DNA of 64,000 bases from Eledone cirrhosa (GCA_964016885.1 OZ024741.1:115010001-115074000), one strand, 5' to 3'; numbered from the stretch's first letter, positions 129 through 63,703 are shown. Program-made: numbers and translations. Notes: a model not told the origin generated them from the sequence alone.

Positions 129-178
129 ATAAGCTGACAAGGCCTTGTTTCGCATTTTTTGATGCTTATCAAGACTAA
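129..178 (-). ncRNA. Degenerate type I hammerhead ribozyme (U3-A8 core variant)
   Basis: Minus strand reads TTGATAA-GCAT caaaaa ATGC-GAAA-CAAGGCCTTG-TC. Stem II and the palindromic stem III are perfect; stem I is poor. Confidence 0.55.
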
Positions 179-265
179 CTACTCCCTCCTGCCTACTGAG
201 ATCACTGATGTTATATTCTTATAGAATTCTAGTAAATAATTTACTAGAATTACATTATACATACA

Positions 266-553
266 TTATATATACATTTATATATATATATATAACTATA
301 TATGTATATATATATATATATATATATATATATATATATATATATATATATATATATATATATGTATATATATATATATTTATATATATATATATATGTA
401 TATATATATATATATATATATATGTATATATATATATATATATATATATGTATATATTTATATATATATATATATATATATATATATATATGTATATATT
501 TATATATATATATATATATATATATATATATATATATATATATATATATATAT
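266..553. repeat. (TA)n microsatellite
   Basis: Direct reading; occasional G interruptions. Confidence 0.97.
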
Positions 554-624
554 AAACAAGGTTTAGTAAATAATGAAAAAGTTTCAAAATAAATTTTAAA
601 AAATTGACTTTACCTACTATAGTA

Positions 625-708
625 ACCTTTACCGATCGGTTTCGAATCCCAAAAATAAAACGGAGACCATACGGCCTTCGTTGCAAAGAGAGATTCTCGT
701 CAGAAGGT
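625..708 (-). ncRNA. Type I hammerhead ribozyme, 53-nt stem II
   Basis: ACCTT-CTGACGA-GAATCTC...GGGATTC-GAAA-CCGATCGG-TA-AAGGT. Confidence 0.88.
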
Positions 709-1107
709 TCTTTTCATTCAAAGAATATAAAATTCCTGAATTTAAATCACAAACTAGCGCTATCAAAGACTGTTCCTGGGATGAGAGTGGATGATGTAGA
801 CCAGATTTATCAAGGGCCGTAGTAAAGATAGAGGCAAAAGGAGGTAGGTCAAACTAGCCACCGCTGTTGTCAGCAGCAGTCGGAATGACCCGGTTTGTTC
901 TCAACGTTTGTGGAGGTAGTAGTAATATGAAATACGTCCCTTCACGCACAAGGCGCCAAGGTACGCATGTATTGTCCAACCAAGTGCCAGTGTGGTTCAA
1001 TGGCGGGTTAATAAATTAACGAGCCAGAACAAATATAAACAAGGTTTAGTAAATAATGAAAAAGTTTCAAAATAAATTAAAAAAAATTGACTTTACCTAC
1101 TATAGTT

Positions 1108-1191
1108 ACCTTTACCGATCGATTTCGAATCCCAAAAATAAAACGGAGACCATACGGCCTTCGTTGCAAAGAGAGATTCTCGTCAGAAGGT
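1108..1191 (-). ncRNA. Type I hammerhead ribozyme, second tandem copy
   Basis: Same motif 483 bp away; stem III reads TCGATCGG (G-U pair). Confidence 0.85.
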
Positions 1192-1934
1192 TCTTTTCAT
1201 TCAAAGAATATAAAATTCCTGAATTTAAATCACAAACTAGCGCTATCAAAGACTGTTCCTGGGATGAGAGTGGATGATGTAGAACAGGTTTATCAAGGGC
1301 CGTAGTAAAGATAGAGGCAAAAGGAGGTAGGTCAAACTAACCACCGCTGTTGTCAGCAGCAGTCGGAATGACCCGGTTTGTTCTCAACGTTTGTGGAGGT
1401 AGTAGTAATATGAAATACGTCCCTTCACGCACAAGGCGCCAAGGTACGCATGTATTGTCCAACCAAGTGCCAGTGTGGTTCAATGGCGGGTTAATAAATT
1501 AATATTTTTGGGATTCGAAACCGATCGGTAAAGGTAACTATAGTAGGTAAAGTCAATTTTTTAAAATTTATTTTGAAACTTTTTCATTATTTACTAAACT
1601 TTGTTTATATTTGTTCTGGCTCGTTAATTTATTAACCCGCCATTGAACCACACTGGCACTTGGTTGGACAATACATGCGTACCTTGGCGCCTTGTGCGTG
1701 AAGGGACGTATTCCATATTACTACTACCTCCACAAACGTTGAGAACAAACCGGGTCATTCCGACTGCTGCTGACAACAGCGGTGGCTAGTTTGACCTACC
1801 TCCTATGGCCTCTATCTTTACTATGGCCCTTGATAAATCTGTTCTACATCATCCACTCTCATCCCAGGAACAGTCTTTGATAGCGCTAGTTTGTGATTTA
1901 AATTCAGGAATTTTATATTCTTTGAATGAAAAGA

Positions 1935-2018
1935 ACCTTCTGACGAGAATCTCTCTTTGCAACGAAGGCCGTATGGTCTCCGTTTTATTTTTGGGATTCG
2001 AAACCGATCGGTAAAGGT
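1935..2018 (+). ncRNA. Type I hammerhead ribozyme, inverted copy
   Basis: ACCTT CTGACGA ... GAAA CCGATCGG TA AAGGT on the plus strand. A 3'-half-only copy lies at 1503-1535. Confidence 0.88.
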
Positions 2019-60294: not shown

Positions 60295-60597
60295 CACACA
60301 GGGCCTAGTGATAAGTGTGTTGGACTTCGGATCAGTGCTGTTGTGGGTTTCGATTCCTGGACTGGGTTGTGTGCGGTGTTCTTGAGCATATCATTTCATT
60401 TTACGTTGATTCTGTCAGTATACTCAGCTGAATATGTGTACCAGCAGCAATAGCTTAGCTGGGGATTTAACCTTGCGATGGGCTAGCATCCTGTCCAGGA
60501 TAAGAGGGTGGTCTTGTATTCTCAGTCGCTTAACGCCTTGAAAACAGTGATAAGCATCGGCCTGATGAATTCTGCGAGGCAGACTTTAGATTTTAGA
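60295..60597 (+). mobile_element. SINE family 2, full length, diverged
   Basis: tRNA-like head, TTCTTGAGCA core, AACCTTGCGATGGGCTAGCATCCTGTCCAGG domain, TTTAGA tail. Confidence 0.72.
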
Positions 60598-60656
60598 TCA
60601 CAGCCACATAGCTTGAGGTTTGATTCCAATGCTATCAACTAACTTCCCTTAAAAGG

Positions 60657-60810
60657 GTCAGTAGATTGGCAGAATCGGTAGAGCGTCGGACAACGTATAA
60701 TGCAGCATTTCTTTTGGCACGTTTCGTTCTGGGTTCGAATCCTACCGAAGCCAACTTTGCCTTTCATTCTTCTGGGTTCGATAAAAACAACAACATACCG
60801 GCAGTACTGG
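60657..60810 (+). mobile_element. SINE family 1 (3' part displaced to about 60986-61070)
   Basis: Head and core, with the tail resuming after an interruption. Confidence 0.72.
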
Positions 60811-61324
60811 ACTTACCTATAAATTAAATAAGCAATAGGTTAGGGCCACATACTCTCAGCGGCTATATTTGAAATAAACATATTTTCTATCATTAATTTT
60901 TATTCATTGATACTAAATCATAAAAAAATAGGGTCGCAATTTTCATATAGATAAGGGCTTCAACAGATGAAAGTCCGGCCCTGTGTACCAGTGAAGTACT
61001 GGGTCGATATAATCGACTTTAATCGCTTTCCAAAATTACTGGTCTTGTGCCTAAATTAGAAATCCTTATTATATACTTCTACGAGACGGGAGTTATGAAA
61101 TTCGGAGGTTGGTGGGAGAATAATTTGTAACGGTTTTAAGGTGAGATTCGTTCAAAACATAAAATTATCGTAGGAAAAACGTAAATTCGCCTTCAAAATT
61201 CTAAAGAAATTTATCAAATACATGCCTTTTAAAATTACACAAATTATATTATTACACCTTCTCAAATACGTGTGTAATATAATAAATATTTACCTGAAAG
61301 CTTTGTGAGTGCAATATGGTAAAC

Positions 61325-61745
61325 GAAATCCGTGAGGGTAACCACATTTGGAGGGGTCTGAACACTGTATTTCTTGATCTGGGGTGCTAGAAAAATTCCA
61401 TGAGGGTGACCACATTTGGACGCTATATTATTTCTTGATCTGGGGTGGTAGATGGATTCCGTGAAGGTGTCCACATTCCGAGAGGTCTGAACGCTATATT
61501 AATTCTCGTTCTGGGTGGATTGGCAGTATCGGTAGAGCGTCAGACAACATGTTTAGCAGTATATAGTTATAGTCCTTTACTTTCTGAGTTCAAATCCCGC
61601 CGAGATTAGCTTTGCCTTTCATCCTTACGGGGTCGATAAAATAAATGCAGTGGGATAATTTCTGCCATTCTGCCAAAAGGAGAAACAATTATTTCTTGAT
61701 CTGGCGTGTTAGACGAAATCAGCGAGGGCGATCGCCTTTTGGAGA
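61325..61745. repeat. ~60-69 bp degenerate tandem repeat interrupted by a SINE family 1 copy (about 61514-61692, +)
   Basis: Recurrent CCACATTTGGA..ATTTCTTGATCTGGGG..GAGGGT. Confidence 0.7.
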
Positions 61746-62899
61746 GATGGGAAAGGGAGAGGATGGGAAGTACATAATGACGTAACTTCAAACAGCCAAG
61801 TGTGGGATTTACAAAATTGACGTTTACAGGACACCTTATACCACCAGTCAGTAATAAAGTCCTTAATTTTTTTGAATATTGTTTTTTGCCGACATAATTA
61901 AATTATGGTGTTTGCCATATCTTCAATTCTTGTTTAAAATTTTTCTCTTCTTAGTAATATATATTTTAAAATAAGAGCTAAGATTTTGCAAAGATTTTTA
62001 CGGGTGTGTTTTTTTTTAATGTTGTACATGATTAATTCGTTGACGAAGTTATAAAAAAACCACCTTTTTTCCCTTTGCAATTCCTAGTTGTAGAAATCCT
62101 ATGACATTATCAATATTGATTATTATTTAAGAATAATGAAATAAATTTACTATGCTCTGGCAACTCTTTCACACATAGAGTGACTAATATATACATTTAA
62201 GACGATTTGGCTGCTATTTCTAATAGGTTTAACCATAATGTAGAGATTAGTCTTCGTTGGTATATACATATATAGTGCAGTGTGTTTTGAGGGGGAATTC
62301 GTTGATATTTCTGACAGATCTAGCTACTATGTAGAGGACGGTCTACCACATTGACATACATATATACAAGTAGTTCCCAAACAGAGCACCTGCATTTATT
62401 TGAGGGAGATTTGGCTGCTACTTTTAACAGGCCTACTTACCATTAGCTCATACAAACACAAGACTGTAGGGTGTGATTTGAGGGAGAATTAGCTGCTATT
62501 TCTATTATTTCCAGCTATCATGTTATGGCATCGCTCTTTTATCTTGTATATATATATAACCAAATCCTCTTTTATCTTGTGTGTGACAGCTCACACTCAT
62601 GCATGTTTAGCTGGCCTCCCCCAAGGTATATCTCGCTGGTGCTGTCTTGGGTGATTTAATGATAGGGACTCCAGTCCTATCATCTCATTTCTACAGCTGA
62701 GTAAACTGGAGAACTGTGAAATAAAGTGTCTTACTCGAGCAAACAACAGATCACCCGGTCCGAGAATTGAACTCACAACCTTTCGATTGCAAGCCCAATT
62801 CTCTAACCACTAAGCCATGCGCACACTATCATAAAGAGCAAAAGACAACCTAAATCAATAAAAAACATCCTTACAGAGGTCAAAGTCCATCCGACCCCC

Positions 62900-63328
62900 A
62901 CAGTGAACGCTACAGTAAAAAAAATGCGGAAGACCCAACTGTGGTATATGTATCAATCTAATAGAGGTTTCGGAATTCCACTTCAAACAAGGACAACACT
63001 TTAGAGTTAAGTGCAATTTCACATGTGCTTCAGAAAACCTGATCTATGTGTTACGTGCTCAGGTTGTCGAGAGCACTACATAGGAGAGACCAAAAACAGA
63101 CCCCGACAATGTATGACCGTCCATAGATCCCAAATCAAAATACGGGAATACAGAAAGATAGCACTAAGTGAACACATCGTGACCTGCGCATCTAATGAAC
63201 AACCCAATTTTAGAATTTTTTCCCATCTACAAATTCAAAGACAACGCTTTCTACATCAACGCATTAGCAAGGAATCACAATTTATCGCCAAATACGAACC
63301 ACTTCTAAATGCTTCCACTTCGGACTAA
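62900..63328 (+). pseudogene. PLE zinc-knuckle + GIY-YIG fragment
   Basis: KKCGRPNCGIC..FTCASENLIY / CSGCREHYIGETKNRPRQCMTVHRSQI..SEH..ESQFIAKYEPLLN. Confidence 0.85.
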
Positions 63329-63663
63329 ACCAAAGCTGGCACACTTTAAAATTAACACCCTAGACAAATTAACCCTTTAGCAATGTATCCTCCTCCAAGA
63401 TTCCTGCAACCTCTGACAACTATATAATGCAGACCAAGCAACCACATAATAACACCCACATCAAGCAAGTCCTGGAGTACTTCAACATTTTCTACTAAAA
63501 TATGTTTCCTTTCTACTATCTGCTTATATATATATATATATATTGGTAAACGGAATAGAAAATGCTGACAAATTGTTCACAGTTGAAAAATGGTTTAATT
63601 AGGAATAAAAGAGTATTAGTGATTGTATGGGTTAGTATTCAGTTGTGGTTTTAAGTTTTTAAG

Positions 63664-63703
63664 TTTTTACCGGTTGCGCATTTCTAAATGCTTTTCAAAA
63701 ATA
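63664..63703 (-). ncRNA. Degenerate hammerhead (U3-A8 core, GAAA changed to GCAA)
   Basis: TTT-TTGAAAA-GCATTT ag AAATGC-GCAA-CCGG-TA-AAA; stem I is weak. Confidence 0.4.

Follow-up and report, generated by a model that had tools for sequence, protein, structure and literature searches.

Hammerhead motifs at (TA)n in Eledone cirrhosa: probable ends of truncated Penelope-like elements and of non-coding retrozymes

A window of 64,000 nucleotides (nt) of DNA from Eledone cirrhosa (GCA_964016885.1 OZ024741.1:115010001-115074000) contains 31 type I hammerhead ribozyme motifs with both core halves, which fall into 17 families. These motifs are probably the 3'-end hammerheads of two kinds of element inserted in (TA)n microsatellites: 5'-truncated coding Penelope-like elements (PLEs), mostly of the Hydra clade, and non-coding retrozymes of 316-670 bp, which are likely copied in trans by PLE enzymes. 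As a whole, the system consists of two known element kinds, with variant ribozymes and one apparently undescribed cis signal, a hairpin in the tail of the element.

The window has a GC content of 35% and abundant TA runs. A strict type I descriptor (core CUGANGA or UUGANAA, GAAA, UH and stem I of at least 4 bp) found 8 motifs, against a mean of 0.13 and a maximum of 2 in 30 local dinucleotide shuffles. A relaxed descriptor that permits mismatches found 13 (0-1 in 8 shuffles), and a scan for long stem II and the U3-A8 core found 15 (0-2 in 20 shuffles). The loosest scan gave 18 against 0-6 in 5 shuffles and was noisy at low scores; at scores of at least 12 it was clean, with 13 against 0. For the catalogue, hammerhead motifs from 232 loci of the genome (3.0 Gb in 1796 contigs) were mapped back onto the window. 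This gave 95 rows, from which 58 low-complexity TA matches and one antisense self-match were removed. The 36 rows kept comprise 27 with both core halves and nine copies of the 3' half alone, and four motifs were added by hand. The resulting number of motifs bears out an earlier note on this DNA, which had counted more than 20 from about 14 families. In the degenerate rows of families K, P and Q the register is one base off, so that stem I counts there are unreliable. Core words at 42047 (-) and 60562 (+) pass no descriptor, sit in a different repeat and were not counted. Among 147 rows of an Rfam scan, the sole hammerhead was HH9 at 52201-52272, whose score of 37 bits is below the cut-off of 52, and nearly all the others were miRNA models on TA runs.

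Every one of the twelve positions cited in the earlier note carries a type I motif, and nine of them pass the strict rule. The other three are 9165, where stem I is closed by a mismatch, 53728, with the core CUGAGAA, and 57769, with G at the cleavage position. Positions 5401 and 17676 pass, yet their stem II is weak or absent. A TA run lies within 310 nt downstream of 27 of the 31 motifs, compared with 27.7% of random positions. Seven PLE protein remnants were found, where at least six had been claimed.

Judged by what lies upstream of them, families C, F, I, L, N and K are the 5'-truncated ends of protein-coding PLEs, which would move in cis, and five of the six belong to the Hydra clade. A full-length relative of family C (locus L023) has a unit of 6164 bp in the order pseudo-long terminal repeat (pLTR), open reading frame (ORF), 3.2-kb untranslated region (UTR) and pLTR, and two pLTR hammerheads 6164 bp apart flank the ORF. 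This single ORF (P0001, 813 amino acids (aa) from Met) encodes a reverse transcriptase (RT) and then, at the C-terminus, an endonuclease (EN) of the GIY-YIG type, as read from motifs and from similarity to the window remnants. It carries the Hydra marks DKT for DKG, a CxCX5C linker and RWR for RWK, and the GIY-YIG part has no CxxC/CCHH inside the nuclease, with CxxC and CxH near the nuclease end. The CxCX5C linker is also present in the parent of family N and in two window remnants, and is degenerate at 2921. The assignment to the Hydra clade rests on the motif marks listed by Craig 2021 (PMC8557442). Pfam and NCBIfam searches of the Hydra ORF gave no match naming it, and a protein search found 117 relatives at 31-48% identity. 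A Naiad PLE ('half-core' motifs) was ruled out for the linked families, since the nuclease is C-terminal to the RT and hammerheads are present. The Hydra RT piece of the window gave 45,137 first-look candidates in the genome, a figure that is not a copy number, and many of these lie in open frames of 600-820 codons.

The other linked families repeat this layout. A relative of family F (L197) has the order pLTR-RT-EN-UTR-pLTR, and family I is joined to the same nuclease at five other loci (L206, L208-L211). Of 19 other loci of family N, 6 have a Hydra EN about 1 kb upstream and in the same orientation. The 5' ends of N form a ladder, and 5' ends also vary in C and F. The family K motif lies 350 bp after a PLE nuclease remnant. 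Because the 3' UTRs are 1-3.2 kb long, stubs of such coding elements look non-coding.

In the window, family C is the 3' end of a Hydra PLE at 6115-6950 (-), its upstream limit being approximate, with a hammerhead at 6177-6326 whose stem II is 115 nt long; 3' halves occur at 34926 and 45493 (+). Family F provides 3' ends of Hydra PLEs on both strands at 39410-39900, with hammerheads at 39483-39543 (+) and 39749-39813 (-), a tail hairpin at 39594 (+), a further hammerhead at 41325-41385 (+) and a 3' half at 41548 (-). Family I is a 5'-truncated Hydra PLE at 53934-57210 (-), with a GIY-YIG remnant at 55177-56263 and a 1.2-kb UTR. Its hammerhead at 53979-54120 (-) has a 107-nt stem II and the U3-A8 core, and that of the inverted arm, at 56897-57025 (+), has a stem II of 94 nt. 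At the inversion point of this element, 56249-56414, stand 8 copies of a 21-bp unit, which may record repeated template jumps. Family L, a 5'-truncated Hydra PLE at 2612-4385 (+), has a GIY-YIG remnant at 2921-3457 and a 0.9-kb 3' UTR; its hammerhead-like motifs lie at 4318-4368 (+) and, in the inverted arm, at 2722-2772 (-), with further copies at 37999-38049 (+) and 57997-58041 (-). Family N is the 3' end of a Hydra PLE at 53300-53917 (+; start approximate) with a hammerhead-like motif at 53730-53825 and a 3' half at 37010 (-). Stubs of this family (L213-L232) turn up very often as bystanders elsewhere in the genome, and many of them break off within stem II. Family K, at 8218-9022 (+), consists of a PLE endonuclease remnant at 8218-8376 and a weak, minimal hammerhead-like motif at 8720, with a second copy near 9845.

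Further PLE remnants lie apart from these ends. A Hydra RT and GIY-YIG remnant, in pieces and with two in-frame stops, occupies 32156-34435 (-), and no hammerhead was found on its 3' side. A 2-kb block is duplicated at 25703-27729 and 30093-32177 with 96-99.7% identity, and its second copy adjoins the 3' side of this Hydra ORF at 32270, where the ORF lacks a hammerhead end. The start of another Hydra PLE ORF is found at 58302-58740 (-), with the ORF at 58302-58598 and, before it, a tail-type hairpin near 58680. A stub that stops at about 45390 ends in a sequence (45241-45390) that continues at 58700 (-) into the tail hairpin and this ORF start, so the N-like family to which that stub belongs is probably coding. 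A PLE thumb and GIY-YIG remnant with a CxxC linker lies at 49310-50255 (+), which we take to be Neptune-like by motif, and a GIY-YIG remnant of another PLE clade lies at 62898-63325 (+).

Families A, B, D, H, J and O are tandem non-coding units of 316-670 bp and by their sequences fit the definition of non-LTR retrozymes. Family A is a 483-bp tandem retrozyme whose two arms stand head to head in (TA)n on both strands at 555-2203. Its hammerheads lie at 624-709 (-), 1108-1191 (-) and 1935-2018 (+) and have a 53-nt stem II; a 3' half lies at 1503 (+), and tail hairpins start at 1030 (-) and 1613 (+). Its arrays hold up to 8 full units (L201) and are 98% alike across chromosomes. Comparison of the A unit with two contig runs of unspecified kind gave related sequence only, which has no bearing on expression. 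The 670-bp tandem retrozyme B, also present in L204, is found at 4793-5876 (+), with a hammerhead at 5399-5479; related copies are at 36211-36289 (-) and about 36870-36947 (-, with a damaged GAAA), and a tail hairpin is at 36575 (-). Family D, a tandem retrozyme of about 332-341 bp, has two arms at 9040-9545 (-), with a hammerhead at 9163-9212 (-) and a 3' half at 9292 (+). Family H, of 466 bp, lies at 51933-52547 (+) with a hammerhead at 52212-52256 that has a short stem II, and its arrays reach at least 14 units (14 full matches in L202). Family J, of 446 bp, lies at 57273-57862 (+); its two motifs, at 57327 and 57769-57811, carry a G at the cleavage position in this copy. Dimers or longer arrays of B, J and D exist at several loci. 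Family O is represented by a damaged copy of a 316-bp tandem unit with the U3-A8 core at 130-250 (-), and its tandem arrangement was seen at one other locus only (L071). The longest ATG frame in the A, H, B, J, D and O units is 20-91 codons.

Five families, E, G, G2, P and Q, could be assigned to neither group. Family E is a fold-back at 17526-17870 (+) with a hammerhead at 17676-17722 and a weak stem II. Family G is a two-armed stub at 42220-42575 (+), with a hammerhead at 42435-42531 (stem II 62 nt), a 3' half at 42352 (-), a tail hairpin at 42292 (-) and a damaged copy at 42964-43052 (+); the G2 motif lies at 42725-42811 (-). The two-armed stub P, on both strands at 44535-45400, has damaged hammerheads near 44666 (-) and 45174 (+) and a tail hairpin at 44632 (-), and is adjoined by an N relative (3' half at 45239, hairpin at 45312). 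Family Q is a stub at 63545-63750 (-) with a damaged U3-A8-type motif near 63666-63701. Genome-wide searches of their own were made for all families except E, G2, K, L, O, P and Q; 40 candidates were scored per search, and among these no coding parent of G was found.

The earlier note had read the cassettes in general as non-coding units mobilised in trans by PLE enzymes, the PLE remnants being separate helpers. For six of the 17 families (A, B, D, H, J and O) this stands, as they are tandem and non-coding and bear PLE insertion marks. In addition, most window copies lack coding sequence, and no coding parent was found for five families. As an account of nearly all the cassettes it has little probability. 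It is already refuted for C, F, I, L and N, which run upstream into Hydra ORFs, and K lies downstream of the endonuclease remnant of another PLE, so that these cassettes are 5'-truncated coding elements too. The ladder of 5' ends in N and the variable ends in C and F also argue against independent units.

Conversely, the tandem units could have arisen as satellites, by local amplification of solo pLTRs from coding PLEs, and not by copying of RNA in trans. Li 2026 (10.64898/2026.07.22.740005) ties Xenopus retrozymes to pLTRs and proposes local amplification, and a coding parent could lie beyond the candidates scored. However, the arrays are scattered over many loci and 97-99% alike; the first unit is 5'-truncated, and an inverted arm is often present. 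They also end against TA at the same two positions, so that each looks like one insertion, and the retrozyme units share only short low-complexity matches with the six coding elements compared. We consider amplification in place improbable.

These two end positions are a feature shared by coding elements and retrozymes. In both groups the ends of copies fall at two constant positions downstream of where cleavage is predicted: at about 70 and 208 nt in C, 51 and 139 in F, 53 and 195 in I, 52 and 131 in G, 17 and 97 in N, about 25 and 115-124 in L, 75 and 186 in A, about 230 and 300 in H, about 290 and 405 in B, and about 230 and 290 in J. The insertion features of Hydra PLEs, namely a pLTR hammerhead, (TA)n, 5' truncation, an inverted arm and a tail, are all present, and the layout of inverted arm and tail is the published PLE layout (Craig 2021, PMC8557442). 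In vitro, an anole PLE uses two internal RT starts, which define the tail, and extends both DNA strands (PMC11167929); the two fixed ends agree with these two start sites and this tail. In family G, 14 of 14 loci have the same two outer ends with differing inversion points, and variants are common to both arms of a locus, so the fold-back is made anew at each insertion. The same observations rule out that G is a fixed fold-back miniature inverted-repeat transposable element copied as a unit. Since the cassettes are near-palindromic and sit within long microsatellites, they might also be artefacts of assembly around (TA)n. This is hardly credible, because the arms differ (85% identity for the window copy of G), inversion points vary between loci while the outer ends are fixed for each family, and the layout is the published one.

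Further evidence comes from a hairpin in the tail. It begins with R-Y-U-C, continues with an inner stem whose length is free and a bulge of 2 nt (UU, UC or UA), and closes with G-A-R-Y, after which GC or AC usually stands. The genomic DNA fetched for comparison, 1.09 Mb and biased to the queries, held 305 distinct motifs, which formed 48 clusters, 23 with at least two members and some being split families; the median stem II of the clusters ranged from 12 to 116 nt. The hairpin occurs in 12 of the 48 cluster representatives, many of which stop at the first end and are unable to show it; the corresponding figures are 0.33 for 200 shuffles and 0 for the antisense strand. Of the 20 families whose ends could be located by their TA junctions 15 have it, a count that excludes three singletons positioned from the hairpin motif itself, and as a rule it starts about 6-9 nt past the first end. 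The window has 13 matches, against 0-6 and mostly 2-3 in 30 shuffles. Four hairpin pairs vary on both sides across families. A copy past the second end is seen in three of the five families read that far, clearly in F, B and the Hydra family from L065. By eye, it is also found in three of six published Hydra consensus sequences (Hydra-2_Amil, Hydra-2_Ajap and Hydra-1_Ajap); Hydra-1_Crog has a near match, and Hydra-1_Amil ends short of it.

The hairpin is likely a signal for enzyme recognition. Its place directly 3' of the first base copied would suit a binding or boundary element of the RT. Since A and B both carry the Hydra hairpin, they are likely passengers of Hydra elements. The strongest argument in these data for the putative copying in trans is its presence in A and B, which otherwise do not resemble Hydra elements. 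Another PLE clade, or a different signal, likely serves families H, J, D and O. Retrozymes H and J are distantly related, with short matches of 75-83%; both have a short hammerhead and lack the Hydra hairpin, and their helper may belong to another PLE clade, such as that of the remnant at 49310-50255. The evidence is evenly balanced on a wider proposal: that the hairpin past both start sites is the address label of Hydra RTs, kept from coral and sea cucumber to Eledone and adopted by unrelated non-coding hammerhead circles for copying in trans, other retrozymes using the label of a different PLE.

The following course of events would account for these features. Arrays or pLTRs would be transcribed, and the hammerhead would cut the RNA, probably as a dimer through the palindromic stem III. 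The cut unit may then be ligated into a circle. Inserted copies run across the cleavage site and arrays consist of many units, so the template for insertion is presumably either circular or a multimer left uncut. The RT-GIY-YIG protein would bind the bulged hairpin and nick both strands of the self-complementary (TA)n. Either of two sites, each about 6-9 nt on the 5' side of a hairpin, would serve as the start of cDNA synthesis. The use of both sites may produce two head-to-head arms, one with the tail, and early stops may leave short stubs.

The ribozymes themselves show both conservation and departure from the canonical form. Across 28 hammerheads from four related families the core is invariant and 96.4% of cells pair, against 36-64% in slid controls. 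Double-sided changes occur in 65 cells, a number reached by 0 of 500 shuffles, and relatedness among the 28 inflates such covariation scores. Comparison of C with I shows a shared stem III, a C3-G8 to U3-A8 swap and one compensated pair in stem I; this core swap is known and active (Cervera 2014; PMC3088659). Long stem II is predicted to form a hairpin of -41 kcal/mol in C and -27 kcal/mol in I. In unconstrained folding of C, I and unit A, the best structure has no active hammerhead junction, which is expected because their stems III are palindromic. Family N keeps the three-stem plan with a stable stem III of 5 bp, and at each of its 20 loci (20 of 20) the core reads CUGAGAA, through a change of G8 or the loss of N7. 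Twelve L motifs from other loci have the core CAGAAGA, in which position 4 is A. N and L lack the canonical core and keep the three-stem plan, and from their sequences we class them as hammerhead-like.

Several results weigh against the view that the motifs end elements copied in the way outlined above. Five families could be placed in neither group, and the search for a coding parent of the retrozymes covered 40 candidates each time. Families H, J and D, two small clusters and also O have no tail hairpin; its second copy is weak in A and half present in C, and by eye no match is seen at the start of Hydra-1_Obim. Pairing is built into the search pattern of the hairpin, which limits the evidence from co-variation. 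In the stems of the 28 ribozyme motifs, the number of pairs that change on both sides, 7 of 18, does not exceed the shuffled controls, 62 of 500 of which reach it. Between close copies, compensated pairs in long stem II number 1 of 45 in C and 1 of 51 in I. Just 15 of the 31 window motifs are intact, with a core CUGANGA or U3-A8, GAAA, UH and three stems. Since N and L are abundant despite fixed non-canonical cores, cleavage may not be needed, and anole PLE elements with hammerhead mutations inserted normally in vitro (PMC11167929).

The last points would also fit elements as described here in which most hammerheads no longer cut, the fold being a structural signal or a relic and the templates uncut multimers. 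We regard this as unlikely but well short of negligible, and it is compatible with the rest of our explanation. The fixed odd cores of N and L and the very long stem II of C and I speak for it, as do reports that 8 of 9 Xenopus dimers were uncut (Li 2026, 10.64898/2026.07.22.740005) and that minimal PLE hammerheads have low activity (Cervera 2014). On the other hand, core letters are invariant, stems covary across families, and the U3-A8 swap preserves the core pair and is known to be active (PMC3088659).

The earlier note knew of no description of such diversity in cephalopods; as a claim of novelty this is too strong. Hydra-1_Obim of Octopus bimaculoides, with a hammerhead and a preference for (TA)n, is already in Craig 2021 (PMC8557442), and sets of many families have been reported: thousands of solo motifs in many families per genome, read as truncated PLEs (Cervera 2014), and 16 hammerhead families in a coral (Cervera 2020, PMC7229834). 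The link between retrozymes and PLEs is also published (Cervera 2020, PMC7229834; Li 2026, 10.64898/2026.07.22.740005), and a count of 235 hammerheads, given without further detail, appears in the paper on the genome of the giant squid (PMC6962438). In the literature searched, with subscription papers and some supplements outside its scope, we found no report of a PLE stem II longer than 60 nt or of the cores CUGAGAA and CAGAAGA, no paper on octopus retrozymes and no description of the tail hairpin. What is apparently undescribed is a stem II of 94-116 nt, odd cores fixed within families, two fixed 3' ends per family including those of retrozymes, and the tail hairpin.

The coding elements share with published Hydra PLEs (PMC8557442) the order RT then GIY-YIG, the CxCX5C linker, DKT, the lack of CxxC inside GIY-YIG, a hammerhead near the 3' end, (TA)n targets, 5' truncation, an inverted arm and a tail. 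They differ in unit length (3.9-6.2 kb with 3' UTRs of 1-3.2 kb, against mostly less than 3 kb), in stem II (26-116 nt, against about 11-25 in the published table and about 54 nt in the spike-moss PLE-X1), in tails (about 75-140 nt against 30-40) and in their very many families and copies. In the main text of Craig 2021 the words 'hairpin' and 'stem-loop' have no matches, and the tail hairpin is unmentioned there. Compared with the solo motifs of Cervera 2014, our motifs have in common thousands per genome, opposite-strand pairs 100-700 bp apart, a palindromic stem III and the U3-A8 variant, whereas here stem II is much longer, stems III are palindromes of 6-12 nt or hairpins of 17-19 nt, and the cores CUGAGAA and CAGAAGA are fixed. 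The Poseidon-type PLE of the anole (Frangieh 2024, PMC11167929) likewise has two internal RT starts, cuts and extends both DNA strands and targets AT-rich DNA. Its starts lie inside a stem-loop that is AC-rich, whereas here a bulged hairpin of other sequence lies just 3' of each start in many families.

The retrozymes resemble published non-LTR retrozymes (PMC7229834; 10.64898/2026.07.22.740005) in their non-coding tandem units with one type I hammerhead each, their low GC (33-40%) and PLEs as the proposed movers. Unlike those, the arrays here directly bear PLE marks (two fixed ends, inverted arm and TA target), two families share the hairpin of Hydra elements, and stem II is long in A and B. 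Circles and cleavage have been demonstrated for retrozymes of coral, mussel and axolotl, whereas the Eledone ones are known from sequence alone. Chlamys elements such as MRC1 (PMC8557442) are comparable as non-coding PLE passengers with multicopy head-to-tail insertions. In MRC1, from a green alga, the 3' end is similar in sequence to that of its helpers; for A and B the likeness is limited to the hairpin and the hammerhead plan.

Elements of many families are nested in one another's flanking TA runs at several loci (L201-L203, L064, L068, L069). Several 9-kb loci contain 3-6 hammerheads, so the motif density of the window is probably typical of the genome. The window also holds repeats of other kinds. 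One group of repeats resembling short interspersed elements (SINEs) lies at 10788-10954, 12754-12953, 16878-17005, 21893-22005, 27048-27238, 37390-37580, 41686-41879 and 61514-61694. A second such group lies at 49167-49269, 58196-58303 and 62719-62822, and one of its copies has a near-threshold Rfam tRNA match (58205-58262, 28.5 bits). Broken remnants of long interspersed elements at 13537-16465 (-) and 45574-46199 (-), with RVT_1 matches at 14414-15334, are not PLEs. Four copies of a 48-bp unit occupy 59394-59593.

The return of retrozymes to the genome has so far been argued from co-occurrence and sequence trees. PLE insertion marks, an intact candidate enzyme (the 813-aa product of L023) and a shared hairpin make the link between retrozymes and PLEs testable. 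If the proposal holds, the hairpin would be the first cis signal to connect retrozymes of animals with an enzyme that can be named, in a genome whose hammerheads also tolerate stem II inserts of more than 100 nt. A short portable signal for a TA-targeting RT-nuclease would also be of interest to retroelement engineers. Hammerheads with a long stem II or odd cores escape Rfam, which recognised 1 of 31 here, as well as the usual descriptors, so that ribozyme counts for genomes of this kind are likely too low.

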